Shown here: positions 6,643-37,824 of the stretch, in pieces | Numbering within the stretch: position 1 is the stretch's first letter | Layout: each line of letters starts with the position of its first letter | Source of the DNA: Bifidobacterium breve | Lineage (GTDB): Bacteria > Actinomycetota > Actinomycetes > S36-B12 > UBA5976 | NCBI GenBank assembly: GCA_945866135.1 | Contig: CAMBGF010000001.1 | Coordinates: 24,805-88,804, forward strand | DNA: 64,000 bases | Direction of reading: 5' to 3' | Position numbers and translations under genes: made by a program | The notes under the pieces: generated by a model | Told to the model about the DNA's origin: nothing | Database searches by the model: none | What the model saw: the letters and a program-made list of their open reading frames with translations, nothing else

Positions 6643-7490
6643 TACAGATTTCCTTCAGCAGTATCTACCACGTTTGCTAACAACATGGCGCGAGTCATCG
6701 GTCCAGTGCCACCTGGCATTGGCGCGATCCAGCCAGCAACTTGTGCGCAGGCAGGATCTATATCGCCAAGTAATCCAGCATCGGTTCGAGTAATACCGAC
6801 ATCAACTAGGGCAGCACCGGATTTGATCATGCTGGGCTTAATAAAATGTGGCACTCCTGCGGCCGCAACCACGATGTCAGCACGTTTAATGTGCGCCGCC
6901 ATATCTTTAGTTCCAGTGTGGCAAAGCGTGACAGTTGCATTCTCACTGCGCCGAGTGAGCAACAGGCCAAGTGGGCGACCAACGGTTACACCACGACCAA
7001 TAATGCAAACTTCGGCGCCATCAATATTTACGCCGAAGGCGCGAAGCAATTCAACAATTCCGCGAGGTGTGCAGGGAAGGGGCGCTGGTTCACCGAGTAC
7101 TAACCGACCTAAGTTAGTCGGATGAAGTCCATCAGCATCTTTTCGCGGATCAATGGCTTCGAGCGCCGCATTGGAATCGAGTCCTTTTGGTAATGGCAAC
7201 TGCACAATGTAGCCAGTGCAGGCAGGGTCAGCATTCAATCGCGCAATCGCAGCCATTACATCTTGCTGAGTTGCGGTAGCAGGTAGGTCTTCACGCACTG
7301 ATGTGATGCCAACTTCATGGCAGTCTTTGTGCTTGCCACCGACATATGAATGTGATCCTGGGTCATTGCCAACCAAGATCGTGCCAAGACCTGGATAAAT
7401 ACCCTTTGCGTGCAGCGCAGTTACGCGAGTGGCAAGGCCCTCCTTTACTTTTGCAGCAGTGGCGATTCCATCAAGAATTACGGCAGACAC
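6642..7490 (-). CDS. folD: bifunctional 5,10-methylene-H4F dehydrogenase / methenyl-H4F cyclohydrolase
   Basis: 282 aa with the motifs [28 protein letters not shown] and [10 protein letters not shown]. Confidence 0.95.
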
Positions 7491-21330: not shown

Positions 21331-22998
21331 TTAGAACAGTCCGACTACTTCGCCGTTTACTAGCTTGATCGAGTTTGCGGCTGGAACCCTTGGCAATCCC
21401 GGCATTGTCATAATGTCTCCAGTCACAACAACTATGAACTCGGCGCCAGCGCTGAGACGGATTTCCCGAATCGTGATGGTGTGACCGGAAGGCGCCCCCT
21501 TGGCAGCGGGATCAGTTGAGAAAGAATATTGCGTCTTAGCCATGCAAATCGGAAAGTGGCCGTAGCCAGCATCTTCAAATACCTGGAACTGATCGATAAC
21601 ACTCTTATCTGCCACTACTTCAGCTGCGTCGTAAATTTGCGTTGCGATAGTTCCGACTTTGTCCCAAAGTGACATTGCATCTGGATAAAGCGGCTTAAAG
21701 GCAGCACTGCCACTTTCCACAAGTTCAACAACTTTCTGAGCCAGAACTTTGGTGCCCTTACTACCTTCAGCCCAGTGTGTGCAGCGAATTGCATCTACGC
21801 CCATATCTGCGCAGTACTTTTGCACGGCAGCAAATTCAGCATCAGTATCTGTCGTGAAGTTATTTACACCGACTACAACTGGAACGCCAAACTTTTGAAC
21901 GTTACGGATGTGACGACCCAGGTTTACAAGTCCTGCCTCAACAGCAGCGACATTCTCTTTACCTAAGTCATCCTTAGCAACTCCGCCATGCATTTTTAAC
22001 GCGCGAACTGTTGCAACAATTACTGCAGCTGACGGTTCAAGTCCAGCTTTACGACATTTAATGTCGAAGAACTTTTCAGCGCCAAGGTCAGCGCCGAATC
22101 CAGCTTCAGTTACTACATATTCACCGAGCTTCAAAGCTGTGTGGGTAGCAAGCACGGTATTGCAACCGTGAGCGATGTTTGCAAATGGTCCACCATGAAC
22201 AAATGCTGGATTGTTCTCAAGAGTCTGAACCAAGTTCGGCATCAGAGCATCTTTAAGTAGTACTGTCATGGCGCCATTTGCATTTAGTTGAGCGGCGGTA
22301 ATCGCAACTTTGTCACGCGTGTAACCAACAACGATGTTTCCAAGTCGGCGCTCCAGGTCGTCCAAGTCCATAGCAAGACACAAAATGGCCATAACTTCAC
22401 TCGCAACTGTAATGTCAAAGCCGGCTTCCCGCGGGTAACCATTGCCTGGGCCTCCGAGAGCAGCAGTAATCTCGCGAAGTGCACGATCATTCATATCTAT
22501 TACGCGTTTCCAAGCAATTCGGCGCACATCAATACCAAGTTCGTTACCCCAATAGATGTGGTTATCCAACATGGCAGAAAGTAAGTTATGGGCAGCGCCA
22601 ATCGCGTGGAAGTCGCCAGTGAAGTGCAAGTTGATATCTTCCATTGGCACTACCTGAGCGAAACCGCCACCGGCCGCGCCACCCTTCATGCCAAAGCAAG
22701 GTCCAAGTGATGGCTCGCGCAAACAAACAATTGCCTTTTTGCCAATTGCATTTAGCCCATCGCCCAGACCAACTGTTGTTGTGGTCTTACCTTCGCCAGC
22801 CGGGGTGGGCGTCATGGCAGTTACTAAAATTAGTTTGCCAGTTGGCCGATTTTTCAAGGATGAGATGAATTCCATGTTGATCTTGGCTTTTGTTGGACCA
22901 TAGCTCAGAACTGCATCTGCCGGAATACCGATTTTTTCTGCAACCGAAACAATTGATTCAGTTGTAGCTGCCCGAGCAATATCGATATCTGATTTCAT
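21331..22998 (-). CDS. fhs: formate-tetrahydrofolate ligase
   Basis: 555 aa with [15 protein letters not shown] and other FTHFS motifs. Its start overlaps the stop of the MttB-family gene (ATGA). Confidence 0.95.
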
Positions 22999-24434
22999 AC
23001 CAATAACTCCTTTTTACGCTTGTCTACCCACTCGTCAAGCTCTTCTTTAATGGCCGAGTCCATTTCTGGCGCAACATAGTCTTCAACCATCTTGTGCGCT
23101 ATTTTATTGGCTCTAACATCTGTTGTCTCGGATCCGATTCGCTTCCAGCGATCAAAGTTGTCTGCAGATGACAGGAACGGCCGATAGAAACAATCACGGA
23201 AACGATCCATAGTGTGAGCAGTTCCAAGAAAATGCCCACCATGTCCAGCTTCTTCGTGCGAGCCAAAGGCAAGTGATGCCTCATCAATTTCAAATGGCGT
23301 GAATTCTGCCTGCATCATCTGAAGTAATTCAACGTCCATAACAAATTTTTCATACGATGCAACTAAGCCACCTTCAAGCCAGCCAGCTGTGTGCATGACA
23401 AAGTTTGTGCCGGCAAGGAAAGTTGCATGCATTGTCATCAACGATTGGTATCCAGCTTGGGCATCCATAGTCTGCGCTGCATTCAGCGCGCCACCACCGC
23501 GAAATGGTAGTCCAAAGTGACGGGCAACTTGTCCAGTGCACAGCAGTCCCATTGCAGATTCCGGAGTACCGAACATTGGTGAGCCTGACTGCATGTCAAT
23601 GTTTGAAAGGAACGACCCAAACACTGCAGGGCAACCTGGGCGAACTAGTTGCGCAAGCGCGATGCCGCTTAAAGCTTCAGCAATTTGCTGCACCAAAGAT
23701 GCTGGAATCGTAACTGGGCTCATTGCGCCCATTAGCAAGAACGGAGTTAGCACACATGGTTGACCCGCTTCGCTGTATTCAAATAAAGAATCCAACATGC
23801 GATCATCCCAACGAAGTGGCGAGTTGCAGTTGATCAGGGAAATAATTGCAGGAGTTTTTTCGATGCTTTCACGAGACCCAAATACAATTTCGGTCATTTT
23901 GATGACATCTCTTGCGTTTGGACCAGTAACAACATTTCCCATGTATGCCTTGTCACTCAAAGTTTGTAAGGAATAGGTCATGTCAATGTGACGGGTGTCT
24001 AAATGTGCATCGTTTGGTTCAACAACAACCGCGCTTGAGACGTCTAAGTCTTCAAACATGTAGGTAAGTTTTGTAAAATTCTGAAAATCATCTAGCGTGC
24101 CATCGCGGCGCACACCCAGATCTCTAACGAATGGGGGGCCATAGACACCACCAAAAACCATATTGTCGCCACCGATGATTACGTTGTTTTTTGGATTGCG
24201 AGCTTGCAGCGTGAATTCCTTAGGGGCTTTAGCAACTTGAGCCAAGATCCACTCAGGATCAAACTTCACATTGTTGCCTTCAACTTTTTGACCCGCGGCC
24301 CGGAACATTTCCAGGGCGCGATCATGCATAAACTCGATTCCCATTTCGGAAACAATTCGGCGCCATCCCTTATCGAGGACAGCCATCGCATCCTGCGAAA
24401 GGATTTCATAACGTGGGCTCTTATTTTGGAACAT
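22995..24434 (-). CDS. MttB-superfamily (non-pyrrolysine) quaternary-amine:corrinoid methyltransferase, probably glycine-betaine specific
   Basis: 479-aa uninterrupted ORF with no in-frame TAG. Length and sequence look like the trimethylamine methyltransferase family. AGGAG RBS upstream. Substrate is inferred from context only. Confidence 0.8.
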
Positions 24435-24631: not shown

Positions 24632-25411
24632 ATGAGCGAGAAGTTTGCCTTAGATATGCAAGAAAAGCCGGTAACTGGAACGCAATCTATTGATCGCGCC
24701 TGCGACCTGCTAATTCGAGTTATTAACTCCGAAGATCCTGTGACATTGAGCGAGCTAGTCTCCACAACTGGCTTAGCTAAGGGAACTACCTCGCGAATCC
24801 TCAGCGCCCTTGAGCGCAGTGGTTTACTAGCCCGAAGTGTGATTGGCGGATTTGAATCAGGACCAGTGCTTAATCAATACGCAGTTCGCGGCGGCGCCTA
24901 CACAGCTTTGATCGGTTCCCTTACGCCAGCAATGGAGCGCATTGCCGACATAACGCACGAAACGGTCAGCTTGGCTGTAACTGGACACACTGGAATCGAC
25001 AATATTGCTCAGGTCGAGGGTTCATATCTATTAGGAAGCCGCAACTGGGTAGGCGAGAGTGTGCCATCTCATTGTTCAGCTGCCGGGAAAGTCCTAATTG
25101 CTTTTGGCGGCGCATCTGCGCCGAGCACATTGGCGCCACGAACCACTGAAACCATTACTGACTTTGCAACTTTGGATGCCCACATTCGAAAAGCGCGAGA
25201 AGTTGGCTACGCCGTAATTCGAAATGAACTTGAGCAAGGCTTGATATCAGTTGCGATTCCAGTTCTTGACGCCTCCAACAAGGCAATCGCGGCTTTGTCA
25301 GTTAGCGGACCTGCTGAGAGAATTACCCCAGGCGATGAATTACACATTGCACAACTTATGCGTAGAGAACTTAACCAAGTACAAGGCTTAAAACAAGAAG
25401 GAGCAGCATGA
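24632..25411 (+). CDS. IclR-family transcriptional regulator (regulator 2)
   Basis: 259 aa with a wHTH (SIDRACDLLIRV...LSELVSTTGLAKGTTSRIL) and an IclR effector domain. GAAGGAGG RBS upstream. It is ATGA-coupled to the corrinoid protein gene. Confidence 0.85.
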   Translation: MSEKFALDMQEKPVTGTQSIDRACDLLIRVINSEDPVTLSELVSTTGLAKGTTSRILSALERSGLLARSVIGGFESGPVLNQYAVRGGAYTALIGSLTPAMERIADITHETVSLAVTGHTGIDNIAQVEGSYLLGSRNWVGESVPSHCSAAGKVLIAFGGASAPSTLAPRTTETITDFATLDAHIRKAREVGYAVIRNELEQGLISVAIPVLDASNKAIAALSVSGPAERITPGDELHIAQLMRRELNQVQGLKQEGAA

Positions 25412-26064
25412 CTCACGATGAAATCCTGAAGGAAATGTATGAGCGCACTATGGAAGGCAATGCACCACGTGTGCTTGAGCTAACTCACATGGGCTTGGAC
25501 TCAGGACTAACACCGGACTCAATTCTTTTTGATGCTTTAATTCCTTCCCTCGAAGAAGTTGGTGCGCGCTTTGAGCGTGGCGACTATTTCGTACCTGAAA
25601 TGTTGATTGCAGGTCGCGCAATGAGTGGCGCTTTAGATGTGCTTCGCCCACTATTGGCGGATACCGGCGCCGAAACCGTCGGCACATTCCTTATGGGAAC
25701 TGTTAAGGGAGATGTTCACGACATCGGTAAGAATTTAGTTAACATCATGCTGGAAGGCGCTGGCTTTCAAGTTATTGATATCGGCGTTCAGTGCGCACCT
25801 GAAAAATTTATTGATGCAATCAAGGAACATCAACCAGATGTTGTTGGCATGTCAGCATTTCTAACCACCACGATGCCAATGTTTAAAGTCAACATCCATG
25901 AAATTACCAAAGCGGGTATGCGCGATGACGTAATAATCATGGTTGGCGGTGCACCGGTGACTCAAGAATATGCCGATGTGGTGGGGGCGGATGGTTACGC
26001 TTCTGATGCCTCGATGGCTGTCCGTAAGGCCAAGGAATTAATTGCAATTAAGCGTGGCAAGTAG
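25408..26064 (+). CDS. corrinoid (cobalamin-binding) methyl-carrier protein
   Basis: 218 aa with an N-terminal helical B12 cap domain and a Rossmann B12 domain carrying the DxHxxG ligand motif (GDVHDIGKNLV). Confidence 0.9.
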   Translation: MTHDEILKEMYERTMEGNAPRVLELTHMGLDSGLTPDSILFDALIPSLEEVGARFERGDYFVPEMLIAGRAMSGALDVLRPLLADTGAETVGTFLMGTVKGDVHDIGKNLVNIMLEGAGFQVIDIGVQCAPEKFIDAIKEHQPDVVGMSAFLTTTMPMFKVNIHEITKAGMRDDVIIMVGGAPVTQEYADVVGADGYASDASMAVRKAKELIAIKRGK

Positions 26065-26072
26065 CAAAATTC

Positions 26073-26468
26073 ATGACGACTTTTATTGCAACTATTGAAC
26101 ACGTAGTCAAAGGCCCGGTTTGGGGCTGCCAAGATTGTGGTCAATGCGTGCTGCACTCAACTGGAATGACTTGTCCAATGAACTGCCCGAAGACATTGCG
26201 CAATGGCCCTTGTGGTGGTGTGCGAGAAAATGGTCATTGCGAAGTAAATCCAGAAATGAAATGTGTTTGGCTTAAGGCTTATGACCGCACGCAAGGTTGG
26301 CCATTGCCCTTAGCTTGGAAAGAGGAATACAACCATTTACGTCCACCGGTTGATAATCGACTAAAGGGAACCTCGTCGTGGAAAAACTTTTTCACTAAGC
26401 GGGATCGCTGGACGCCAGCTGGTTGGAAGAACACCACGGATGAATCAATCGAAGTGGGTCACAACTGA
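26073..26468 (+). CDS. metV: MetV-like Cys-rich small subunit (methylene-H4F reductase C-terminal-domain protein)
   Basis: 131 aa with the Cys-rich stretch CQDCGQCVLHSTGMTCPMNCPKTLRNGPCGG. Its stop overlaps the metF start. Confidence 0.7.
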   Translation: MTTFIATIEHVVKGPVWGCQDCGQCVLHSTGMTCPMNCPKTLRNGPCGGVRENGHCEVNPEMKCVWLKAYDRTQGWPLPLAWKEEYNHLRPPVDNRLKGTSSWKNFFTKRDRWTPAGWKNTTDESIEVGHN

Positions 26469-27409
26469 TGTCAACACTTGAGCATAAATTAACTAAAACT
26501 ACCGAAACTGTATTCACTGCTGAATTTCACTCACTTGATGGAAATGGTCTAGAAAAGGCAAAGAAGTATGCCGACCGATTAAGCGGTTGGTTTGATGGCG
26601 TAAATGCCACGGATAACACGGCAGCACATGCACATGTTTCTAACGTTGCTACTGCCATAGCCATGAAACAACTTGGTCTGGAACCAATTTTGCAAGTAGT
26701 TTGCCGTGACAAGAATCGCTTAGCTCAACAAGCGGACATCATGGGCGCAAGCATGTTTGGCGTTGAAAACTTCTTGGCGCTAACTGGTGACGATGTAACG
26801 GCTGGAGATGAAACAGAAGCTCGTCGGGTATTTGATTTAGACGGACCACAGCTAGTGCGCTTAATGAGCACAATTAAGCGTGGTGAATACATGTCGGGCC
26901 GCAAAATTGATCCTGCGCCGCACATGTTCATTGGCGCTGTTGAAAATCCTGGCGCGCCGCCATTTGAATATCGCGTTCAACGGGTTGCCAAGAAATATGC
27001 CTCAGGTGCTAAGTTTCTACAACTTCAAATTTGCTACCATCAAGATCGCTTAGAAAAGTTCTGTGCTGGTGTTCGCGATGCAGGTTTAGCTGGCAAGATC
27101 GCGATAATTCCAACCATTGTTTTGATCAAAGGTGCCAGGCCATTGAATTTCATGCACAATAACGTGGCAGGAATTGATGTTCCGGCGGATCAGATTGCGC
27201 GCGTTGAAAAAGCAGCGGATCCGGCAGAAGAAGCATATTTACAAACTTTAGAATTTGCCCAACATGCTTTGGCTCAGCCAGCTGTGCGGGGTCTGCACAT
27301 AACAGACTTCAGAAATGATGAGACACTTGAACGACTAATGACAGACCTTGGCAGAGTTCGCCAATCAATTACAAGCGAAGTAAAGGACAACCATGCATAC
27401 AGTGCTTAG
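26468..27409 (+). CDS. metF: methylenetetrahydrofolate reductase (acetogen-type MetF)
   Basis: 313-aa MTHFR TIM-barrel-like sequence (VNATDNTAAHAHVS..., ALTGDD...), paired with metV. Confidence 0.8.
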   Translation: MSTLEHKLTKTTETVFTAEFHSLDGNGLEKAKKYADRLSGWFDGVNATDNTAAHAHVSNVATAIAMKQLGLEPILQVVCRDKNRLAQQADIMGASMFGVENFLALTGDDVTAGDETEARRVFDLDGPQLVRLMSTIKRGEYMSGRKIDPAPHMFIGAVENPGAPPFEYRVQRVAKKYASGAKFLQLQICYHQDRLEKFCAGVRDAGLAGKIAIIPTIVLIKGARPLNFMHNNVAGIDVPADQIARVEKAADPAEEAYLQTLEFAQHALAQPAVRGLHITDFRNDETLERLMTDLGRVRQSITSEVKDNHAYSA

Positions 27410-28247
27410 TAGCCCAACCAAGACGGTAACAATCGGTCATGATGTTCCGTTTGTAATTATTGGTGAGCGCCTAAACCCCACTGGACGCAAACTTTTCCAA
27501 GAAAAACTTCGTGCCAATGATCTTTCAACTATCAACATTGACGTAGCTGACCAAGTTGCTGGTGGCTGCGACATGCTCGATGTGAACATGGGCGTTCCAC
27601 TAACAGATGAACCAGCACTATTGGCGAACGCGATCAAACTCGTCCAGTCACTAACTGACTTACCGATTTGCATTGATTCATCGGTCATCGAAGCGCTGGA
27701 AGCAGGACTTGCCGTCTATGAAGGCAAAGCCCTAGTTAACTCAATGACTGGTGAAGATGAGCGAATGGATTTGATACTTCCGTTAGTTAAGAAATATGAC
27801 GCGGCGATTCTTGCTCTTCCTAATGATGAAATTGAAATTCCTATGCTGGCAAAAGACCGCATGGTAATTGTTGAAAAGATTGTGCGTCGGGTTGAAAAAG
27901 AAGGCATCTCGCTAGAGAACTTGCTAATTGATCCACTTGCCATGCCAGTTGGCGCAGATCCAGAAAATGCAAAGCACACACTCGAGACCATTTACTTAAT
28001 TAAAGAAAAGTATGGTCTTAACATGTCACTCGGTGCCTCAAATGTTTCCTTTGGCTTACCAAACCGGCATGCCCTAAATGGTGCTTTTATGCCGATGGCA
28101 ATGGCGATGGGTTTAACATCGGCAATTATGGATGGTCGCACTCCTGAAGTTGTACAAGCAGTGCGCGCTTCGGACCTAGTTTTGGGACTAGATCAATGGG
28201 GCGCTAATTGGATTAGTAACTTCCGAGCAAACAAAGAAGCGCAATAA
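27393..28247 (+). CDS. methyl-H4F:corrinoid methyltransferase (pterin-binding, DHPS-like)
   Basis: 284 aa with FVIIGERLNPTGRK and DMLDVNMGVP, resembling AcsE, MtgA and the MetH pterin-binding module. Confidence 0.8.
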   Translation: MHTVLSSPTKTVTIGHDVPFVIIGERLNPTGRKLFQEKLRANDLSTINIDVADQVAGGCDMLDVNMGVPLTDEPALLANAIKLVQSLTDLPICIDSSVIEALEAGLAVYEGKALVNSMTGEDERMDLILPLVKKYDAAILALPNDEIEIPMLAKDRMVIVEKIVRRVEKEGISLENLLIDPLAMPVGADPENAKHTLETIYLIKEKYGLNMSLGASNVSFGLPNRHALNGAFMPMAMAMGLTSAIMDGRTPEVVQAVRASDLVLGLDQWGANWISNFRANKEAQ

Positions 28248-28276: not shown

Positions 28277-30145
28277 GTGCCAGAAAACGAAAGCTCCTCG
28301 CCGCAGACGACAGTCAGTGGACTTGGTCGCGTCCAATTGCAGTTCAGTCCAAGTGGAACTGATGTTCGTGTGCCCCCTGGAGTAACTGTTTTTGACGCAG
28401 CTTCGTGGAATGGTTTAGCAATTGACTCCACATGTGGTGGCCATGGAACTTGCAAAAAATGCAAGATTCAAATTCTTGAAGGCGAAGTTCCGGTTTCTCG
28501 ACTAGACATCCGAGCCTTTAGTTCAGAACAGCTTGCAGATGGCTGGCGCTTGGCATGTGTTGCTCGCGCAAACGGAAATCTAAAAGTTGAAGTCCCGCCG
28601 CTATCCACGCGGCCAAAAGCTGCAACGGTGGGAGTAGGTCGACAGGTTATTTTGCGTCCTGCTGTGCAAAAACGATATGTCGAACTTGTTGAGCCAACTT
28701 TGCACGATCAACGTCCTGACATTGATCGACTGCGAGATGCCATGGATGATTTAGAGTTCCAAGCTGATTTATCAGTTCTAAAAACCCTGCCAACTATCTT
28801 GCGCAAAAATGATTTTAAAGTTACTGCAGTAGTCGTAGATGAGGCGCTGATTGCAGTGGAGCCAGGTGATACTTCGGCGCAGAACTACGCAATTGCCTTT
28901 GATCTTGGGACCACCACTGTCGTAGCGACTTTGCTTGATCTAATGACAGGCACTCCGCTGGCAGTTAAGTCAATGCTTAACAAGCAACAGCCATTTGGTG
29001 CCGACGTAATTTCGCGAATTTCTGCAACGATGATGGATCCACTGGCTGCTGGTCTAATGCAAAGCGCTGGACTAGCCACACTTAATGAACTTATTGCTGA
29101 AGTATGCACTGAAGCGGGCATCTCAAAAGATCAGGTTTACGAAACAGCGATTGCTGGTAACGCGACTATGGTCGAAATTTTGCTTGGCGTAGATCCAGAA
29201 CCTGTAGGCGTTGCGCCGTTTATCACTGCGGCGCAAAAGTGGCCAGTGTTTACTGCTGCTGAAGTGGGAATTGAAATACTTCCTTCCGCTCGCGTCTTTC
29301 TATTCCCAGCATTCGGTGCCTACGTTGGTGGTGACATTGTTGCGGGCGTGCTTGCTACTGGTATGGATCGCGACAAGCGAGTGCGCTTACTTATTGACGT
29401 AGGCACTAACTGCGAGATCGTGCTATCAAACGGCGACACGATTTTAACAACGGCTGCCCCAGCGGGACCAGCTTTTGAAGCCGCTTCAATTGCCTGTGGC
29501 ATGCGCGCTGCCGATGGCGCCATAGAAGTAGTGCAAGTAACTGATGAAGGTATCAAACTTGGGGTGATTGGCGATACGGAACCAGTTGGAATTTGCGGAT
29601 CAGGTCTAGTAGATGCGGTTTACGTACTTCATAAAGCAAAACTGATCGATGATTCTGGCCGCTTTGTAACTGATGAGTTAGCTCTTGAAATTGCCCCACA
29701 CTTAGCTTCGCGATTGCTCACTCGAGAAGCAGGGGATCGAATTTTTGTATTGCACTGGGACGGCGAGGAACCAACGGTTTACCTATCGCAGCGAGATGTT
29801 CGTGAACTGCAATTTGCAAAAGCTTCGATTGCAACGGGGTGGCGCCTGCTACTTGAAGAAGTTGGCTTAGTTGATGAGGATGTGCAGCAGGTGCTGCTCG
29901 CTGGATCTTTTGGATCGTATCTGTCGCCAGCATCGGCCATTGGCATCGGATTGGTTCCAAAACTTCCAGTTATGCGTATCGTCAGTGCTGGAAACGTTGC
30001 CGGCGAAGGCGCGAAGATGGTTTTGTTGTCGAGCACAGAACGAAGCGGCGCAACTACTTTGTTGGATGAAGTTGACTATGTTGAACTTTCTGATCGACCA
30101 GATTTCAACGACAAGTTTTTCTTGGAGTTGGCGCTTCCATCATGA
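28277..30145 (+). CDS. RACo-type ATP-dependent reductive activator of corrinoid proteins (2Fe-2S ferredoxin domain fused to an ASKHA domain)
   Basis: 622 aa with an N-terminal plant-type ferredoxin motif (CGGHGTCKKCK...C) and an ASKHA body (AFDLGTTTV, DVGTNCEIV). GTG start with a weak RBS. Confidence 0.75.
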   Translation: MPENESSSPQTTVSGLGRVQLQFSPSGTDVRVPPGVTVFDAASWNGLAIDSTCGGHGTCKKCKIQILEGEVPVSRLDIRAFSSEQLADGWRLACVARANGNLKVEVPPLSTRPKAATVGVGRQVILRPAVQKRYVELVEPTLHDQRPDIDRLRDAMDDLEFQADLSVLKTLPTILRKNDFKVTAVVVDEALIAVEPGDTSAQNYAIAFDLGTTTVVATLLDLMTGTPLAVKSMLNKQQPFGADVISRISATMMDPLAAGLMQSAGLATLNELIAEVCTEAGISKDQVYETAIAGNATMVEILLGVDPEPVGVAPFITAAQKWPVFTAAEVGIEILPSARVFLFPAFGAYVGGDIVAGVLATGMDRDKRVRLLIDVGTNCEIVLSNGDTILTTAAPAGPAFEAASIACGMRAADGAIEVVQVTDEGIKLGVIGDTEPVGICGSGLVDAVYVLHKAKLIDDSGRFVTDELALEIAPHLASRLLTREAGDRIFVLHWDGEEPTVYLSQRDVRELQFAKASIATGWRLLLEEVGLVDEDVQQVLLAGSFGSYLSPASAIGIGLVPKLPVMRIVSAGNVAGEGAKMVLLSSTERSGATTLLDEVDYVELSDRPDFNDKFFLELALPS

Positions 30146-30735
30146 GCATCGCAGTGATTGCATGTGGAGCACTTGCTGCCCACGTTCATGAAATAGCAGA
30201 TCGTCGAAATTTGGACTTGCATGTTGAGCCGGTCAATCCGTTACTCCACAACCGCCCTGAAGGAATTGCGCCAGAAGTTGAAAAACTAATTCTGGAATTA
30301 CAACCAATACATGATCAAGTTGCTATTGCCTACGCAGACTGTGGAACTTACGGTGCGATAGATCAACTTTGTGACAAGTACCAAGTCTCGCGCTTGTCTG
30401 GAGATCATTGCTATGACGTGTTTGCCACTGCGGAAAAAATGAAAGCTGAATTCGAAGCTGAGCCAGGTACTTATGTATTCACGGACTACCTAGTAAAGAC
30501 TTTCAGGCGCAGCGTCATGGTGGAAATGGGACTGGAAAAATACCCAGAACTTCGGGATGACTACTTTCACTCCTACAAGCGAGTGCTTTGGCTATCACAG
30601 CGCCAAACCCCTGAATTAGAGGCTGCCGCCCAAGATGCAGCGCAACTAATCGGCCTGCCACTTGAAATTATGCATGTTGGAGATGCACACTTAGAAGAGC
30701 AGCTCCTTGCTTTGATTGGATCAAAAGTTGAGTAA
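30142..30735 (+). CDS. DUF1638-like protein of unknown function
   Basis: 197 aa. The pattern VIACGALAAHV..., YADCGTYGAID, GDHCYDVF resembles DUF1638 proteins. It is coupled to RACo upstream and overlaps fdsG downstream. Confidence 0.55.
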   Translation: MSIAVIACGALAAHVHEIADRRNLDLHVEPVNPLLHNRPEGIAPEVEKLILELQPIHDQVAIAYADCGTYGAIDQLCDKYQVSRLSGDHCYDVFATAEKMKAEFEAEPGTYVFTDYLVKTFRRSVMVEMGLEKYPELRDDYFHSYKRVLWLSQRQTPELEAAAQDAAQLIGLPLEIMHVGDAHLEEQLLALIGSKVE

Positions 30736-31189
30736 TTATTCCGAGGAAAGCATTCTGAATTACTTGGGACCTTACAAAGGCGAGGCGTCAGCGATTTTAC
30801 GTTCTTTGCAGTTGGTGCAAGAACTTTTGGGTTACGTGCCAGATAGCGCCATTGATTTAGTCGCTAAAAATTCCAATGTTTCGCGCGCCGAAGTTTATGG
30901 CGTATTTACCTTCTACAGTGATTTCCGCTCAACACCTCCTGCCCAAGTTGTCGTTAAAGTGTGTGTCGCTGAGGCTTGCCAAGCATCTGGAAATGCCGAA
31001 TTGATTTCACAATTACACGGCCAGGGCTATGACATTCACAGTGGAAAAATTAAAGATGATATTCAAATGGAACAAACTTTCTGCTTAGGAAATTGCGCAC
31101 TTGGCCCAGCTGCCATGGTTAACGGTAAGCCGATTGGACGCGCAACTAGCGCGAGTATTTTGAAGACCGCTGTGGAACTTATTTCGTGA
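30716..31189 (+). CDS. fdsG: NAD-dependent formate dehydrogenase gamma subunit (NuoE-like 2Fe-2S)
   Basis: 157 aa with the NuoE-type Cys pattern (CVAEACQASG ... CLGNCALGPA). The track uses a TTG start, so the exact start is uncertain. Confidence 0.8.
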   Translation: MDQKLSNYSEESILNYLGPYKGEASAILRSLQLVQELLGYVPDSAIDLVAKNSNVSRAEVYGVFTFYSDFRSTPPAQVVVKVCVAEACQASGNAELISQLHGQGYDIHSGKIKDDIQMEQTFCLGNCALGPAAMVNGKPIGRATSASILKTAVELIS

Positions 31190-32733
31190 TTAAAGTATTT
31201 GTTCCTTTGGATTCTGCTGCCTTATCAATGGGCGCAGACGAAGTGGCCATTGCAATTGTGCAAAGCGCCGCAAGCCAAGGCAAAGACATTACTTTGATCC
31301 GCACAGGATCCAGAGGAATGCTTTGGTTGGAACCATTAGTTGAGGTTGAAACTTCAGCTGGCCGCATTGGTTTCGCCAACATAAGCACCGAGGCAGTCCC
31401 TGAGTTAATCAAAAGTGGAGCGCTAGACACTGGATCCCATAAATCAAGTATTGGATTAGTCGAAGAACATGATTTCTTTAAGAATCAAAACCGAGTAACT
31501 TTCGCCCGCGTTGGAGTAATTGATCCACTTTCGATTTCAGATTACGAAAATCATGGCGGTCTTGTAGGACTGCGCAAGGCGCTGGAAATGTCTGCCGCTG
31601 AAGTAGTTTCACAAGTTACTGAATCCGGACTGCGTGGTCGTGGCGGCGCAGGATTCCCAGCTGGCATTAAATGGCAAACGGTACTTAACACGCAGTCAGA
31701 TCAAAAATACATTTGTTGCAATGCCGATGAAGGTGACAGTGGGACATTCGCAGACAGAATGCTGATGGAAGGTGATCCATTTACTCTGATTGAAGGAATG
31801 ATCATCTCTGGAATTGCAGTCGGTGCAACGCAAGGTCTGATTTATGTGCGCTCGGAATATCCTCATGCAATTGACATCTTGAATCGTGCGATTGCGATGG
31901 CAAACGAATATGGCTTACTTGGTTCAAACGTCTTGGGATCGAAATCTGCTTTTGCTCTTGAGGTTAGAGTTGGCGCAGGCAGTTACGTGTGTGGTGAAGA
32001 GACCGCAATGCTGGAAAGTCTGGAAGGCAAACGTGGCATGGTTCGTGCTAAGCCTCCGATCCCAGCGCTGGTTGGATTGTTTGGGAAACCAACAGTAATA
32101 AATAACGTGATGACTTTGTCTGCGGTTCCAATGATTTTGGCGCAAGGTGCTGCTGCGTATCAGGCACTAGGACATGAGCGCTCCCGCGGTACGCAAGTAT
32201 TTCAACTCGCTGGAAACATAAAACGAGGTGGCGTAGTTGAAGTTGCTTTCGGAATCACTCTAGGTGAACTCGTAGATATCTACGGCGGTGGAACTAACAG
32301 TGGTAAGCCTGTTAAGACTGTGCAAATTGGTGGACCACTTGGGGCTTACTTAGGTACTGAATCTTGGGATGTTGCGATGGCTTATGAATCCCTTGCCCAA
32401 GCTGGTGGCATGCTGGGCCACGGCGGCATTGTGGTTTTTGACGATACGGCAAACATGGCAAAGCAAGCAAGGTTTGCTATGGAATTTTGCGCGGAAGAAT
32501 CGTGTGGCAAATGCACTCCTTGTCGTATCGGGTCAACTCGTGGAGTTGAAGTTATTGATCGAATTGTTGCGGGCGAAGATCAAGAAAAAAACCTCGAATT
32601 ACTTGAGGATCTGTGTGAAGTCATGACTGACGGTTCGCTTTGTGCAATGGGTGGACTCACTCCAATGCCAGTTCGCAGTGCACTCAAGTTATTTCCAGCT
32701 GATTTCGGGATCAAGACAGGAGCAAAGTTATGA
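31186..32733 (+). CDS. fdsB: NAD-dependent formate dehydrogenase beta subunit (NuoF-like, FMN/NAD/4Fe-4S)
   Basis: 515 aa with GRGGAGFPAGIKW and CGKCTPCR. GTG start overlapping the fdsG stop. Confidence 0.9.
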   Translation: MIKVFVPLDSAALSMGADEVAIAIVQSAASQGKDITLIRTGSRGMLWLEPLVEVETSAGRIGFANISTEAVPELIKSGALDTGSHKSSIGLVEEHDFFKNQNRVTFARVGVIDPLSISDYENHGGLVGLRKALEMSAAEVVSQVTESGLRGRGGAGFPAGIKWQTVLNTQSDQKYICCNADEGDSGTFADRMLMEGDPFTLIEGMIISGIAVGATQGLIYVRSEYPHAIDILNRAIAMANEYGLLGSNVLGSKSAFALEVRVGAGSYVCGEETAMLESLEGKRGMVRAKPPIPALVGLFGKPTVINNVMTLSAVPMILAQGAAAYQALGHERSRGTQVFQLAGNIKRGGVVEVAFGITLGELVDIYGGGTNSGKPVKTVQIGGPLGAYLGTESWDVAMAYESLAQAGGMLGHGGIVVFDDTANMAKQARFAMEFCAEESCGKCTPCRIGSTRGVEVIDRIVAGEDQEKNLELLEDLCEVMTDGSLCAMGGLTPMPVRSALKLFPADFGIKTGAKL

Positions 32734-35576
32734 CAGTAGTTTCAGATCCACGCGGCACTATGCCAATGCGATCAGGAATTGGTGAAGCTGATTATGGAAC
32801 ACCCAAATCGGATTCAGATGTTCTGGTAAACGTCACTATTGATGGCCAGTCCCATTTAGTTCCGCTTGGAACGTCAATCATGCGAGCAGCCGGGGAAGCT
32901 GGTTGTGACATTCCAAAGCTTTGCGCCACTGATTCATTGCAACCATTTGGATCCTGCCGAATGTGCCTTGTCGAAATTGATGGTCGAAAAGGAACTCCAG
33001 CTTCCTGCACCACACCTGTCGAAGAAGGAATGGTAGTTCGCACTCAGACTGCAAAAGTTGCAAAACTTCGTAAAGGCATGATGGAGCTTTACATTTCAGA
33101 TCACCCGCTCGATTGCCTCACTTGCTCAGCAAATGGCGATTGCGAACTCCAGGATATGGCTGGGGTATCAGGACTTCGCGAAGTTCGTTACGGCATAGGC
33201 AAAAATCATCTTGATGCACCAACGGATTCCTCGAATCCTTATTTCTCATTTGATGAGAGTAAATGCATTGTCTGTAATCGCTGCGTTCGCGCGTGCGACG
33301 AAGTACAAGGCACTCTTGCCCTAACTATTGAAGGACGTGGCTTTAATTCAAAGGTAAGTCCAGGTGGCTTGAACTTTTTATCTAGTGAATGTGTATCTTG
33401 TGGAGCTTGTGTGCAAGCTTGTCCGACTGCAACATTGCAAGAAAAATCTGTAATTGATTTAGGTATGCCAACTAGGACTGTTGAAACTACTTGTGCCTAC
33501 TGTGGCGTCGGTTGCTCATTCAATGCTGAGCTACGCGGTGATGAATTGATTCGAATGGTTCCAACAAAAACCGGTGGAGCTAATGAAGGTCACAGTTGCG
33601 TAAAAGGTCGATTTGCTTGGGGATACGCCTCACACAGTGACCGCGTAACCACACCAATGATGCGCGAGAAAATTACCGATGAATGGCGCGTAGTTTCTTG
33701 GGATGAAGCGATCCAATTCACAGCCACAAAGTTCAAGGCAATTCAAGAAAAATATGGTGACAATAGCATCGGCGGTATTTCGTCATCACGTTGTACTAAT
33801 GAGGAAATTTTCGTTGTCCAGAAAATGGTTCGTGCTGCTTTTGGCAATAACAACATTGATACTTGTGCGCGCGTGTGCCACTCACCAACGGGCTATGGCT
33901 TAAGTACCACGTTTGGCACCTCAGCTGGCACTCAAGACTTTAAATCAGTTGCTCACTCAGATGTGATCGTTGTGATTGGAGCAAATCCAACTGATGCGCA
34001 TCCAGTATTTGCTTCGCGCATGAAGCGACGAATTCGGGCTGGGGCGAAGTTAATTGTGATTGATCCGCGCAAGATTGATCTCGTGGAATCTGCTCACATC
34101 AAAGCTGATTTCCACTTACCACTACAGCCCGGAACTAATGTGGCAGTAATCAACGCAATTGCACATGTAATTGCAACTGAAGGTTTAATTGATGAAGAAT
34201 TCGTAGCGCAGCGCTGCGATCCAGGTCAGTTCAAGCGCTGGCGCGCATTTATTGAACTTCCCGAAAACAGCCCAGAAGTAGTTTCCGCGCAATCTGGAGT
34301 TCCGGCGCAATTGATTCGCGAAGCTGCTCGGATGTATGCCGCTGGTAATAACGCAGCAATTTATTACGGTCTGGGCGTCACTGAGCATTCCCAGGGTTCA
34401 ACCATGGTTATGGGTATGGCCAACTTAGCCATGGCAACTGGAAACATTGGGCGCGAAGGAGTTGGCATCATTCCATTGCGCGGCCAAAACAATGTGCAAG
34501 GCGCTTGCGATATGGGTTCTTTCCCGCACGAACTTTCGGGTTATCGACATGTTTCTGACAATGCAGTCCGTGAACAATTCGAAATGTTGTGGGACGTAAA
34601 GCTGTTACCAGATCCTGGAATGCGCATCCCAAATATGTTTGACAACGCTATTTCCGGAGAATTCCGCGGCGTATTTGTGCATGGCGAAGATATTGCGCAA
34701 TCGGATCCAAACGTTAAACATGTTCACCGGGCTCTTGAATCGATGGATCTTGTCGTCGTGCAAGATTTATTCCTGAACGAAACCTCAAAGTTTGCGCATG
34801 TTTTCTTGCCAGGAACTTCCTTCTTAGAAAAAGATGGCACCTTTACTAACGCTGAGCGTCGTATTAATCGAGTCCGTCCAGTTATGGCGGCTCGCAACGG
34901 TAAGCAAGAGTGGCAGATTGTTTGTGAAATCGCGCAAGCCATGGGTTATGACATGCACTACGACAATGCTGCACAGATTATGGATGAGATTGCGCAAATC
35001 ACTCCAACTTTTAAGGGCGTGAGTTTTGCCATGCTTGACCAGGTTGGTAGCGTGCAATGGCCATGCAATGACGCCGCTCCAACTGGCACACCAATTATGC
35101 ACATTGATAATTTCGTTCGTGGCCAAGGTCAGTTCATGGAAACGCCTTTTGTTCCTACCGAAGAACGTTCAAATCGTAAGTTCCCACTTTTACTTACTAC
35201 TGGTCGAATCTTGAGCCAGTACAACGTAGGCGCGCAAACTCGTCGTACTAAGAACACCACATGGCACACGCAAGATTTACTCGAGATTCATGAGGCGGAC
35301 GCAGCTATGCGAGGGATCGTGGATGGGCAGAAAATCGCAATCACAAGTCGCATTGGCGAAACGATTTTGACTGCTCATGTTACCCAGCGAGTCCCAGCAG
35401 GTGTGGTTCACACAACTTTTCACCACCCGCAAAGTGGTGCAAATGTTATTACGACAGAATTCTCGGATTGGGCAACCAATTGTCCTGAGTATAAAGTGAC
35501 GGCTGTTGAAATTCGTCCCGCAGAATCTAGTGCGCCTGCAACCAATACCCTCGATGAAGTGCTGACAAAGGTCTAG
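32730..35576 (+). CDS. fdsA: NAD-dependent formate dehydrogenase alpha subunit (bis-MGD, Cys-type)
   Basis: 948 aa with an N-terminal NuoG-like 2Fe-2S and 4Fe-4S Cys clusters, then a molybdopterin domain whose active site reads ARVCHSPTGYG. The residue is Cys and there is no in-frame TGA. Confidence 0.92.
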   Translation: MTVVSDPRGTMPMRSGIGEADYGTPKSDSDVLVNVTIDGQSHLVPLGTSIMRAAGEAGCDIPKLCATDSLQPFGSCRMCLVEIDGRKGTPASCTTPVEEGMVVRTQTAKVAKLRKGMMELYISDHPLDCLTCSANGDCELQDMAGVSGLREVRYGIGKNHLDAPTDSSNPYFSFDESKCIVCNRCVRACDEVQGTLALTIEGRGFNSKVSPGGLNFLSSECVSCGACVQACPTATLQEKSVIDLGMPTRTVETTCAYCGVGCSFNAELRGDELIRMVPTKTGGANEGHSCVKGRFAWGYASHSDRVTTPMMREKITDEWRVVSWDEAIQFTATKFKAIQEKYGDNSIGGISSSRCTNEEIFVVQKMVRAAFGNNNIDTCARVCHSPTGYGLSTTFGTSAGTQDFKSVAHSDVIVVIGANPTDAHPVFASRMKRRIRAGAKLIVIDPRKIDLVESAHIKADFHLPLQPGTNVAVINAIAHVIATEGLIDEEFVAQRCDPGQFKRWRAFIELPENSPEVVSAQSGVPAQLIREAARMYAAGNNAAIYYGLGVTEHSQGSTMVMGMANLAMATGNIGREGVGIIPLRGQNNVQGACDMGSFPHELSGYRHVSDNAVREQFEMLWDVKLLPDPGMRIPNMFDNAISGEFRGVFVHGEDIAQSDPNVKHVHRALESMDLVVVQDLFLNETSKFAHVFLPGTSFLEKDGTFTNAERRINRVRPVMAARNGKQEWQIVCEIAQAMGYDMHYDNAAQIMDEIAQITPTFKGVSFAMLDQVGSVQWPCNDAAPTGTPIMHIDNFVRGQGQFMETPFVPTEERSNRKFPLLLTTGRILSQYNVGAQTRRTKNTTWHTQDLLEIHEADAAMRGIVDGQKIAITSRIGETILTAHVTQRVPAGVVHTTFHHPQSGANVITTEFSDWATNCPEYKVTAVEIRPAESSAPATNTLDEVLTKV

Positions 35577-35578
35577 TA

Positions 35579-35794
35579 ATGGATGTCACAATACTAACTC
35601 GAATGGCCGAGCAAATTGAACTTAATATTCCTGTCCATGAAGACACTTACCTAAGAATTTCAGAGCACTTAGTGAAATTCTGGACACCACAAATGCGCAC
35701 AGATTTTTATCAGCAAGTAACGAAAAACCGAAAAGATTTCAGCGCAACATTAAATAAAGTTGTTGATGAACTTCGAGCGAAAGCTAATGCTTAA
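35579..35794 (+). CDS. fdsD: formate dehydrogenase delta subunit
   Basis: 71 aa with HLVKFWTPQMR, matching the FdsD-family FW-P-M-R motif. It lies immediately after fdsA. Confidence 0.75.
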   Translation: MDVTILTRMAEQIELNIPVHEDTYLRISEHLVKFWTPQMRTDFYQQVTKNRKDFSATLNKVVDELRAKANA

Positions 35795-36969
35795 TTAATT
35801 CGCCAAGGCAATGGCAAGATTCGAATTAAAGTTCCAGCAGGATTTTCGCCAGGAGAAATTACCGCTAAACCCTCCGCATGAGAGAGTCCACGTAACATAG
35901 CGGAACCTCGGAATTCGGTAAGTTGCGCTTTGCCGGAACTAAGCACTATCGGCACCACGCGCGTTCTTTCACATGGATAATCCAGTTCAAGTTGCGTTTT
36001 TGTCATGCGGTAATTTTCTTGCCCGGTAAGCCCGCGAAGTGCTGGGGCAACAATCGTTAAAAAACTAACCAGGGCAGCAAGTGGATTACCGGGAAGGCCA
36101 GCAACTAACTGGCCGCTGGGTAATCTTGCGAGCAGGCTGGGATGTCCAGGTCGCATGAAAATTTCATCGATGATGTTAGTGGCTTTTAATTCCATAAGCG
36201 CCGTTCGCAAATAGTCGCGCTCACCATGAGCGCTGCCGCCAGTTACCACAATAATTTCGCCTGTACTTTCAGAAATTAAATTCTTAAGCTGAGCCAGATC
36301 ATCAGGACAGTTAATGCTAGAACTCACATTTGCACCAAGATATTCAACCCAGGAAGAAACTTGGATAGTAAGCGAATCGCGAATCTGACCAAGTTCAGGC
36401 GTGCCACTTGAGACAAGTTCACTTCCAGTCACGATTATCGCTACCGCTGGCTTTTCATAGACTAAAACCTCATCGATTTGAGAACTAGTGGCCAGACCCA
36501 TTACGGCAGGAGTTAGGAGCGTTCCTGCGGCAGCAATAATTTCGCCGGCTTCAGCTTCGTCGCCAGGTGTGCGAATGTGCTGGCCGAGTGTGAATGAATT
36601 TTTACTAGCTACTGATCCATCGAACAGACTTGCTAATTCGCTAGGAATCACAAACGAACAGTGCGGCGGTAAATGTGCACCTGTACTTACTTTCAGTGCG
36701 CACCCAGAATCCAAGTAGGGCAAATAGCTCCCAGCATGTAGTTCTCCGACGATGTTCCATGGCCCAGGTCCAAATACTGCGTAGCCATCCATCATCGAAG
36801 TGTGAGCCGGTGGCAATGAGATTTGGGAAACTAGAGATTCAGCTAAAACTTGATTTAGTGCCTGTGCCAAGGGAATCGAGATTGCAGACTTAGTAACCAC
36901 AGATTGGCTGCTTAGGGCAACCGCTGAATCCCAATCCACATTGTGATTATTGTCCCCAGTCATAGACAT
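35791..36969 (-). CDS. moeA: molybdopterin molybdenumtransferase
   Basis: 392-aa MoeA-like sequence (SMMDGYAV, VTGGSAHGERDY). It is convergent with fdsD and the 3' ends overlap by 4 nt. Confidence 0.85.
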   Translation of the reverse strand: MSMTGDNNHNVDWDSAVALSSQSVVTKSAISIPLAQALNQVLAESLVSQISLPPAHTSMMDGYAVFGPGPWNIVGELHAGSYLPYLDSGCALKVSTGAHLPPHCSFVIPSELASLFDGSVASKNSFTLGQHIRTPGDEAEAGEIIAAAGTLLTPAVMGLATSSQIDEVLVYEKPAVAIIVTGSELVSSGTPELGQIRDSLTIQVSSWVEYLGANVSSSINCPDDLAQLKNLISESTGEIIVVTGGSAHGERDYLRTALMELKATNIIDEIFMRPGHPSLLARLPSGQLVAGLPGNPLAALVSFLTIVAPALRGLTGQENYRMTKTQLELDYPCERTRVVPIVLSSGKAQLTEFRGSAMLRGLSHAEGLAVISPGENPAGTLIRILPLPWRIN

Positions 36970-37002
36970 AATCTACCGAACCCATGCCATGCTTTAGACC
37001 TG

Positions 37003-37824
37003 ATGAACAACGTTGACTCAATAATTGTTGCTGGTGGTAGCGCCTCGCGACTGAGCGGAATCGATAAGGCGTTGTTGCCATTTGGGTCAGCCGGCAACAC
37101 ATTGCTAGTTGATGCAGTAGCCGCTTGTCCAGGCCGAGTTCTCGTTGTGGGTTTACCTCGCGACATTGCCGTGGCAGTAATCGCGCGCGTGACATGGGTT
37201 TCTGATTTAAATCCAGGCGGTGGTCCAGCTGCGGGAATCTGGTCAGGCCTAGAACACGTGAACACAGAATATGTTTTTATTTCAGCTGGTGATCAAACTC
37301 TGGACTCAGAAACAGTGACGGCAATTATCGAAGCAGCCGCAGGAAATGACGGCGCTTGGGCTATTCGCGAAGATGGCCTAGGGCAACCACTTTGTGCCTG
37401 TGTCAGAACGCAATCACTTAGGGAAATGCTTGCACCCACGCAAGGGATAAACCTTTCACCACTTCGGTTACTTTCGACTTTGAATATGGTCGGCGTTAGT
37501 GTGAAGCCAGGACAGGTTACAGATTTTGATACTTGGGCAGATGTAACTAGAGCGGTTAAGCGGAGTGAAGCAATGGATCAGATTACGCAAATGTGGTTAG
37601 CTCGGGTTGCTGCGATATTAGAAGTGGATCAACATGGACTCCCAGTTGCGCAACTTCTTGACTTAACCCGCGAAGTTGCCCACGGCGTCGAACGTAAGTC
37701 CGCCCCGCTAACTACTTATCTTCTCGGTTACGCCGCAGGGAAAAAGTCTTTAACATCAGCCGAAGTTACCGATCTACTTAGCCACGTTTCCAAAGCAGTG
37801 CAGGAATGGGAAAGCGTTGAATAG
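37003..37824 (+). CDS. mobA: molybdenum cofactor guanylyltransferase with an extra ~80-aa C-terminal domain
   Basis: I chose the start at 37003 (MNNVDSIIVAGGSASRLSGIDKALLPF) because the track start 36943 would overlap moeA. The NTP-transferase fold is followed by an additional helical C-terminal region. Confidence 0.75.
   Translation: MNNVDSIIVAGGSASRLSGIDKALLPFGSAGNTLLVDAVAACPGRVLVVGLPRDIAVAVIARVTWVSDLNPGGGPAAGIWSGLEHVNTEYVFISAGDQTLDSETVTAIIEAAAGNDGAWAIREDGLGQPLCACVRTQSLREMLAPTQGINLSPLRLLSTLNMVGVSVKPGQVTDFDTWADVTRAVKRSEAMDQITQMWLARVAAILEVDQHGLPVAQLLDLTREVAHGVERKSAPLTTYLLGYAAGKKSLTSAEVTDLLSHVSKAVQEWESVE

Follow-up and report, generated by a model that had tools for sequence, protein, structure and literature searches.

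A short MetV subunit paired with MetF in a betaine-catabolic locus of an aerobic actinobacterium: a probable methyl-tetrahydrofolate dehydrogenase

Methylene-tetrahydrofolate (methylene-H4F) reductases of the MetFV type have been described mainly as enzymes of anaerobes (PMC8515935), and are divided into two-subunit, RnfC2-containing and Hdr/Mvh-containing classes, together with a speculative 'X type' that involves NuoEFG homologues (PMC8515935). No physiological partner is known for the two-subunit enzymes, which accept reduced ferredoxin in vitro although on energetic grounds this donor is implausible in vivo. The C. formicoaceticum enzyme oxidises methyl-H4F with FAD or rubredoxin, not with ferredoxin, and with NAD+ as acceptor the A. 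woodii complex is slow in this oxidation unless methylene-H4F dehydrogenase draws the reaction forward. Here we describe a metV–metF pair carried by a 64,000-nucleotide stretch of DNA deposited under the name Bifidobacterium breve (assembly GCA_945866135.1, contig CAMBGF010000001.1, positions 24,805 to 88,804 of the forward strand; hereafter the window, whose first nucleotide is position 1). The pair lies among genes for corrinoid-dependent demethylation, and we read it as a MetFV-type reductase that would run backwards, as a methyl-H4F dehydrogenase, and pass its electrons to an acceptor encoded elsewhere. We give this reading a probability of about 0.7.

In some aerobes, methyl-H4F made by demethylases is oxidised by dedicated MetF paralogues, as is the case for metF2 of the chloromethane (cmu) pathway and for metF of the ligM O-demethylation operon. 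The aerobic marine bacterium Ruegeria pomeroyi was reported to demethylate betaine with MtgB, MtgC and MtgD (Mausz et al. 2025, PMC12478193). The protein most induced on betaine in this organism is MetF2 (SPO1862), a MetF paralogue assigned to methyl-H4F oxidation, while SPO3016, labelled methylenetetrahydrofolate reductase (EC 1.5.1.20), goes down in the proteomics (PMC12478193). SPO1861, an uncharacterised neighbour of metF2, is induced in two of four growth comparisons (PMC12478193, supplementary file 2) and could be the MetV of R. pomeroyi. MetV is mentioned neither in PMC12478193 nor in Price et al. 2018.

The pair of the window consists of the following genes.

26073..26468, + strand: metV, 131 aa; short MetV subunit with the PF12225 core, NGPCGG and eight conserved cysteines
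26468..27409, + strand: metF, 313 aa; flavoprotein subunit (MetFV-type methylene-H4F reductase), in our interpretation a methyl-H4F dehydrogenase

The original prediction of a 131-aa Cys-rich MetV-like protein overlapping the start of a 313-aa MetF is borne out by the positions and translations of the open reading frames (ORFs): the MetV translation holds CQDCGQCV...CPMNCPKTLRNGPCGG, and the metV stop and the metF start share one base (..ACTGATG..). MetV matches PF12225, the MetV family, which is entitled 'MTHFR C-terminal' after methylene-H4F reductase (MTHFR), far beyond chance (E=1.9e-25), and MetF matches PF02219, the MTHFR TIM barrel, over its full length (E=2e-26; residues 10-294 on profile positions 7-286 of 287). 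The 131-aa start of MetV is correct, because E9, K13, C19, C22 and C25, all invariant in the family, and C34, conserved in at least 90% of sequences, precede the internal Met36 at which some public gene calls begin. Public calls for this same protein disagree with one another: it is given as 96 aa from the internal Met in one assembly (L087, 2711-3001) and left uncalled in another (L090, 2597 to 3001). The exact MetF protein recurs in several metagenome assemblies.

All eight cysteines of MetV (C19, C22, C25, C34, C38, C47, C56 and C64) are common to acetogen MetV in our alignment, and all except C34 are invariant among 40 diverse sequences of the family. NGPCGG occupies residues 44-49; Yi et al. 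(PMC8515935) assigned this motif and the Cys features of MetV to two [4Fe-4S] sites, and the window protein would be expected to carry two such clusters. It nevertheless differs from acetogen MetV at both ends. The Cys-containing N-terminal ~118 residues of the acetogen protein are missing, so that the window protein begins at the PF12225 core, and its C-terminus bears a conserved PPVDxRLxGTSSW that is absent from the acetogen sequence. Proteobacterial homologues have an N-terminal extension that is unrelated and Cys-free. As to solved relatives of MetV, a PDB sequence search gave a chance match only (E=0.17), and a Foldseek search with the AlphaFold model (pLDDT 74.5) returned no fold relative (best E=8.3).

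The window MetF shares 31% identity (E=3e-40) with its counterpart in the Acetoanaerobium noterae Wood–Ljungdahl cluster, which comprises CODH, CooC, formate-tetrahydrofolate ligase (FTHFS), FchA, MetV, MetF, LpdA and AcsD/C, and 34% (E=1e-65) with the S. meliloti MetF that adjoins MetV, while its identity to E. coli MetF is only 17% and its matches to solved NAD(P)H-type enzymes (Thermus, human) are weak (27-31 bits). Its profile scores point the same way, with 161 bits against PRK08645 versus 45 bits against TIGR00676. E19, D108 and Q187, invariant in the alignment, are the equivalents of E. coli Glu28, Asp120 and Gln183, which we take from the MetF structural literature, together with the role of Phe223, to be the catalytic residues of the folate chemistry. 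In all MetV-linked MetFs aligned, the aromatic residue equivalent to Phe223 is missing and LRGD is replaced by LTGD. By these comparisons, MetF belongs to the MetFV clade and stands nearer to the MetFs that accompany MetV than to those of the NAD(P)H type.

One genome per species was scanned with a MetV alignment, which gave at least 600 matches; the best 80 loci were taken for taxonomy, and all ORFs in 82 loci were labelled by BLAST against the window proteins. The best 80 of these matches belong mostly to Actinomycetota (Nanopelagicales, Gaiellales and Solirubrobacterales, as well as the isolates Planobispora takensis and Allosalinactinospora lopnorensis), with a Chloroflexota block and a single locus under the name Rubrivirga. 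When plasmids and chromids were searched by tblastn, MetV also appeared in S. meliloti, Paracoccus aminovorans, a marine Paracoccaceae bacterium and Azoarcus sp. KH32C, and on many plasmids of Acinetobacter. Among these matches, the closest relatives of the window MetV are in aerobic Actinomycetota, Chloroflexota and Proteobacteria. MetF adjoins MetV in 80 of the 82 loci, at least 10 cluster representatives (50% identity) are natural full-length MetV–MetF fusions, and in Acinetobacter the fusion occurs in the reverse order, MetF–MetV. Since natural fusions exist in both orders, MetV and MetF work as one unit, and we regard them as an obligate two-subunit pair.

One such fusion, of 463 aa, is encoded on a plasmid of the strict aerobe Acinetobacter lwoffii (L084, 7909-9300) near genes for queH, mesX (a putative oxygenase), methionine synthase and flavin reductase, a context which suggests a different, methionine-linked use of the MetV domain. 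A small Cys-free gene of the PF13769 ('virulence factor') family lies directly upstream of metV in Azoarcus (L085, 8546-8881) and S. meliloti (L001, 11469-11771), and recurs in L009, L040, L072, L077 and L080, which include actinobacterial and Chloroflexota loci; it is without homologue in the window.

Set beside the two-subunit (type II or '2S') MetFV of acetogens (Clostridium ljungdahlii, C. formicoaceticum, Thermoanaerobacter kivui, Eubacterium callanderi), the pair of the window is alike in that metV lies directly upstream of metF and overlaps it, in its MetF clade, NGPCGG and eight cysteines, and in having no RnfC2 or Hdr/Mvh genes adjacent. It differs by the 131-aa MetV, shortened at the N-terminus and ending in GTSSW, by its aerobic host, by its place in a betaine-demethylation rather than a Wood–Ljungdahl cluster, and by a main direction that is expected to be oxidative. 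The term 'acetogen-type' used in the original prediction calls for a qualification: the pair belongs to the MetFV family, but its MetV lacks the acetogen N-terminal region and has its nearest relatives in aerobes.

The metV–metF pair lies within ten + strand genes, from 24632 to 35576, that overlap or stand no more than 29 nt apart and probably form one operon, as judged solely from this spacing. The other eight are listed here.

24632..25411, + strand: IclR-family regulator, first gene of the operon
25408..26064, + strand: mtgC-like corrinoid (B12-binding) protein; PF02310 and PF02607, best NCBIfam model MtgC
27393..28247, + strand: mtgA/mtgD-like methyl-H4F:corrinoid methyltransferase (pterin-binding); PRK07535 at 294 bits, cut-off 259
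28277..30145, + strand: RACo/RamA-type ATP-dependent corrinoid reductive activase; RACo domains and an N-terminal [2Fe-2S] ferredoxin domain
30142..30735, + strand: DUF1638 protein, by domain match
30716..31189, + strand: fdsG, NuoE-like [2Fe-2S] subunit; best model formate dehydrogenase (FDH) gamma, below cut-off
31186..32733, + strand: fdsB, NuoF-like FMN/NAD subunit; 726 bits, end to end, against C. necator FdsB (6VW7)
32730..35576, + strand: fdsA, catalytic subunit with molybdenum bis-pyranopterin guanine dinucleotide (Mo-bisPGD); TIGR01591 at 897, cut-off 666

The location of metVF between a corrinoid protein and a methyl-H4F:corrinoid methyltransferase, as originally proposed, is upheld by the profile matches of both flanking genes; the corrinoid protein reaches 203 bits against NF047996 and 156 bits against NF047995, below both cut-offs. 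DUF1638 is known to co-occur with RamA-like activases (PMC5764234). A promoter and terminator scan of 24300-36100 found fewer sites than in shuffled sequence, and an Rfam scan of the whole window returned four tRNAs only (39432, 43881, 56661 and 56804), with no cobalamin, tetrahydrofolate (THF) or glycine riboswitch.

Divergent from this operon is a − strand block (4996-24434) that holds betA, folD, soxGADB, the DMGDH-like gene, the Opu transporter, the betB-like gene, a second IclR regulator, fhs and mttB, and molybdenum cofactor and FDH maturation genes come after fdsA on the other side.

22995..24434, − strand: MttB-superfamily methyltransferase, non-pyrrolysine (MtgB-like quaternary amine:corrinoid); PF06253 E=6e-187, uninterrupted ORF, divergent from the operon
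21331..22998, − strand: fhs, formate-tetrahydrofolate ligase (FTHFS), by annotation
18982-20487, − strand: betB-like aldehyde dehydrogenase (ALDH), betaine-aldehyde-dehydrogenase-like
14940-18989, − strand: Opu-type ABC transporter, including OpuAC
12334-14757, − strand: dimethylglycine dehydrogenase (DMGDH)-like flavoprotein gene
7514-12310, − strand: soxG/A/D/B, heterotetrameric sarcosine oxidase
6642..7490, − strand: folD, methylene-H4F dehydrogenase/cyclohydrolase
4996-6642, − strand: betA; TIGR01810 above cut-off
35791..38647: moeA (−), mobA-DUF6457 (+) and fdhD (+), molybdenum cofactor and FDH maturation genes, after fdsA

MttB, the corrinoid protein, the pterin methyltransferase and the activase, encoded together, constitute a cobalamin-dependent quaternary-amine methyltransferase system. 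Its substrate would be glycine betaine, to judge from the adjacent genes for BetA, the betaine-aldehyde-dehydrogenase-like ALDH, OpuAC, DMGDH and Sox. By gene content, the window holds every step from choline to glycine, and every H4F-linked step from methyl-H4F to CO2 would also be encoded, provided that MetVF converts methyl-H4F to methylene-H4F. This island combines two N-demethylation chemistries, one that relies on a corrinoid, for the first methyl, and one that relies on flavin and H4F, for the remaining two.

The same association is found well beyond the window. Components that produce methyl-H4F accompany MetV in most of the 82 loci (MtgC in 72, MtgA in 69, RACo in 57, MttB in 54 and DUF1638 in 53), and FTHFS is present in 13. 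S. meliloti, Paracoccus aminovorans and Azoarcus sp. KH32C all have the order corrinoid protein–DUF1638–MetV–MetF–pterin methyltransferase–RACo, in the first two with MttB alongside; the window lacks any homologue of the 'ferredoxin' encoded beside MttB in S. meliloti and Paracoccus. In two loci from metagenome-assembled genomes (MAGs) of Actinomycetota, L075 (1774-5235) and L078 (5350-9926), MetV–MetF directly follow two stand-alone GcvT-family (aminomethyltransferase-like) genes, and Mtg genes are absent. The GcvT family includes the methyl-H4F-forming demethylases DmdA and LigM, and the genes of these two loci may encode a different demethylase of this kind that feeds MetVF. This would fit with MetVF being a general module for methyl-H4F oxidation.

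The proposed sequence of reactions would be as follows. Glycine betaine would be imported directly or made from choline by BetA/BetB, whereupon the MttB-family enzyme would move one methyl onto the Co(I) corrinoid of MtgC and MtgA would transfer it to H4F. Methyl-H4F would then be oxidised to methylene-H4F at the flavin of MetF, the electrons leaving singly through the two putative [4Fe-4S] clusters of MetV towards the acceptor encoded elsewhere in the genome. FolD would pull the product of MetVF onward and, with FTHFS and FdsGBA, take the carbon to CO2, yielding NAD(P)H, ATP and NADH, while RACo and DUF1638 would hold the corrinoid reduced. Context argues for the oxidative direction put forward in the original prediction, because MetVF is linked to producers of methyl-H4F (MttB/MtgC/MtgA), which precede it in the pathway, and to genes of one-carbon (C1) oxidation (FolD, FTHFS and formate dehydrogenase), which follow.

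Four points weigh against this reading. Direction, flavin type, cluster content and O2 tolerance are all inferred for enzymes with a short MetV. If MetVF were the sole MTHFR of the genome, it would also have to run reductively for methionine. No stand-alone ferredoxin or rubredoxin was found in the 64 kb by a motif scan of all frames, nor any gene for an electron-transfer flavoprotein (ETF). Finally, fdsGBA is fused to the operon in the window and in two related loci (L004 and L005), so that a lineage-specific interaction with MetVF is possible.

Among the alternatives, the one that survives best is that MetVF is mainly reductive and supplies methyl-H4F to a split methionine synthase made up of MtgC, MtgA and a homocysteine-binding MtgE encoded elsewhere, betaine catabolism being secondary. 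This would be in line with the finding that in R. pomeroyi and P. inhibens both MtgC and MtgD work in either direction and are essential for making methionine, and with the Acinetobacter MetF–MetV fusion, which adjoins methionine synthase genes. Moreover, a PF02574 homocysteine methyltransferase (MtgE-like) gene occurs in the mtg cluster of eight loci (including L053, L060 and L062), in keeping with the connection already reported between demethylation of betaine and synthesis of methionine. No MtgE-like gene, however, is present among those ORFs of the window that reach 150 aa, and the operon is set in a catabolic island of transporter, BetAB, DMGDH, Sox, FolD, FTHFS and FDH genes with its own IclR regulators. 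In R. pomeroyi, too, it is MetF2 that rises on betaine, whereas the protein labelled methylenetetrahydrofolate reductase (SPO3016) falls. We therefore consider a mainly reductive role unlikely.

The original prediction had also placed NuoE/NuoF-like fdsG and fdsB about 3 kb downstream of metVF in the same operon and named the FdsGB diaphorase as a candidate acceptor. The location is correct (fdsG starts at 30716, ~3.3 kb downstream, with co-transcription deduced from spacing), but the role is not borne out. FdsA scores 1385-1399 bits against 6TG9/9WXB (about 1390 against R. capsulatus FdsA, 6TG9/6TGA), and neither FdsB nor FdsA has any extra domain beyond its solved orthologues. Compared with FdsGBA(D) of Rhodobacter capsulatus and Cupriavidus necator (6TGA, 6VW7), the window encodes full-length FdsB and FdsA, with an fdhD-like chaperone and Mo-cofactor genes adjacent, and differs in that fdsD was not identified in the window and in that the genes, from their spacing, would be co-transcribed with a methyltransferase operon. 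By all these features FdsGBA is an orthodox NAD-dependent formate dehydrogenase. A MobA-like NTP transferase fused to DUF6457 is encoded at 36943-37824, between moeA and fdhD.

Were FdsG/FdsB the NAD+-reducing diaphorase of MetVF, the result would be an NAD-linked methyl-H4F dehydrogenase akin to the 'X type' MetFV–NuoEFG. Such an arrangement has its attractions: in the window, as in L004 and L005, fdsGBA is part of one densely packed operon with metVF, the MetFV enzymes studied to date need a separate NADH module, and in Desulfobacterales and Chloroflexi metFV lies beside NuoEFG homologues, for which Yi et al. (PMC8515935) speculated a complex. The window shares with the 'X type' of Dethiosulfatarculus sandiegensis (speculative, PMC8515935) the presence of NuoE/F/G-like genes and metFV in one cluster. 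In the window, however, the NuoEFG-like genes are a bona fide FDH, the NuoG-like subunit being a complete FDH alpha subunit, and they lie downstream, after three genes, where NuoEFG is upstream in the X type. The main argument against the diaphorase is that the linkage is not conserved. FdsA or FdsB was found within 10 kb of MetV in seven of the 82 loci, and FdsG in six; the seven are all closely related to the window. Its arrangement, with fdsGBA in the same direction at the end of the mtg operon, is shared by L004 and L005 alone, whereas in the other five (L011, L015, L024, L030 and L036) Fds is on the opposite strand and converges on the end of the mtg operon. NuoEF-like genes are absent within 10 kb of the Chloroflexota, Gaiellales, Solirubrobacterales and proteobacterial loci. 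Furthermore, the alignment of FdsB and of FdsA with the solved proteins runs over the whole length and leaves no added docking domain, and FDH maturation genes come directly after fdsA. The idea is tempting, but in our view unsupported and improbable.

In four of the five convergent loci the unit is fhs–fdsG–fdsB–fdsA (L036 ends inside the unit, at fdsB), which indicates that Fds travels with the formate-producing enzyme, as expected of the last step of the pathway. Accordingly, FdsGBA would belong to the metVF operon because it ends the same pathway, and not because it docks to MetVF. Two states thus exist among close relatives, since in the window, L004 and L005 fdsGBA is fused to the mtg operon and fhs stands beside mttB, a difference that points to inversion or rearrangement in this lineage.

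That the partner of MetVF is not obvious, as originally remarked, remains true. Neither the 82 loci nor those ORFs of the window that reach 150 aa contain RnfC2 or HdrABC–MvhD-type domains, and so the window offers none of the NAD(P)H modules known as RnfC2 and Hdr/Mvh; the search turned up only an EtfD-like CCG protein that is tied to DMGDH–EtfAB. ETF was considered as acceptor and rejected. Clustering of unlabelled ORFs revealed EtfA, EtfB and this EtfD-like membrane CCG/4Fe-4S dicluster protein in 21 loci, and the Etf genes adjoin DMGDH wherever DMGDH is present, i.e. in 15 loci (L013, L018, L028, L029, L037, L041, L045, L052, L053, L056, L057 and L060-L063); six have Etf genes without DMGDH (L022, L032, L038, L044, L054 and L058). 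As the Etf genes sit by DMGDH, and none is present in the window, we assign them to DMGDH; the 64 kb of the window do include the DMGDH-like gene. A DMGDH–EtfB–EtfA–EtfD-like unit stands beside the mtg cluster in Gaiellales, Solirubrobacterales and some Nanopelagicales loci.

A further possibility is that MetV hands the electrons of methyl-H4F to the [2Fe-2S] domain of RACo and thereby funds ATP-dependent corrinoid reactivation, the bulk of the electrons needing another sink. The order MetV–MetF–MtgA–RACo(–DUF1638) is kept from Actinomycetota to Proteobacteria, RACo does have an N-terminal ferredoxin domain, and for activases of the RamA/RACo type no physiological donor is known in aerobes. 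The case is one of synteny alone, however, and reactivation takes occasional electrons only, too few for a catabolic flux; MetVF also occurs where RACo does not, for example in L034, L075 and L078. Transfer to RACo is, in our opinion, very unlikely. Least probable of all is that MetF uses NAD(P)+ directly, with MetV only structural or activity-stimulating, for even though the canonical MetF of aerobes is NAD(P)H-linked and FolD could pull an unfavourable NAD+-linked oxidation, as in the A. woodii complex, all purified MetFV enzymes fail with NAD(P)H in the absence of an extra module, the window MetF clusters with these enzymes and lacks the Phe223 equivalent, and the near-complete conservation of the MetV cysteines (seven of eight invariant, the other nearly so) argues for a redox role. 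We thus return to methyl-H4F oxidation with electron transfer to an acceptor encoded outside the window as the preferred explanation.

The nearest homologues of MetF and MetV belong to Nanopelagicales, Actinomycetes and Actinomycetota MAGs. These relatives suggest a host of Nanopelagicales type, and genes of the window for sarcosine oxidase, a copper amine oxidase and an enzyme that depends on mycothiol mark it as an aerobic actinobacterium; Nanopelagicales are aerobic freshwater plankton. The copper amine oxidase and the mycothiol-dependent Rv2466c-like nitroreductase are encoded at 54666-56603 and 53567-54181, respectively. Elsewhere in the window, tig–clpP–clpP–clpX occupy 56951-61047, the listed clpP ORFs (58399-59034 and 58941-59663) overlapping.

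Close to the system of the window is also the MtgBCD and MetF2 pathway of R. pomeroyi. Both comprise an MttB-family enzyme with its corrinoid protein and pterin methyltransferase, a RamA-like activase, DUF1638, a MetF paralogue and H4F-linked C1 oxidation, and S. meliloti, Paracoccus and Azoarcus share the MetV–MetF–methyltransferase–RACo order of the window. The differences are the actinobacterial host, which comes from environmental metagenomes and has Nanopelagicales-type MAGs as its nearest named relatives, and the gathering of the whole route from choline to CO2 in a single island whose operon includes fdsGBA. The window is therefore an actinobacterial member of the recently described aerobic betaine pathway, and its MetF is one that is paired with MetV. 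On MetV in aerobes, or in Nanopelagicales, searches of the literature yielded no relevant paper; what appears to be new is that the short-MetV form of MetFV is common in aerobes and largely unremarked in searchable papers.

Our analysis places cobalamin-dependent betaine catabolism, with full oxidation of the methyl carbon, in a Nanopelagicales-type actinobacterium, a group for which we found no paper on the subject. An Fe-S subunit accompanies MetF in actinobacteria, Chloroflexota and three proteobacterial loci, and the redox-partner problem of the acetogens thus extends to ordinary aerobes, in which genetics is easier. It is tempting to speculate, although this is tentative, that short-MetV/MetF pairs represent a distinct, oxygen-compatible class of MetFV, acting as methyl-H4F dehydrogenases that feed a higher-potential carrier, not NAD+ or a low-potential ferredoxin. 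If this were true, tractable hosts such as Sinorhizobium and Paracoccus, and Ruegeria only if its MetF2 is MetV-linked, could settle the much-debated physiological partner of the two-subunit enzyme of acetogens.

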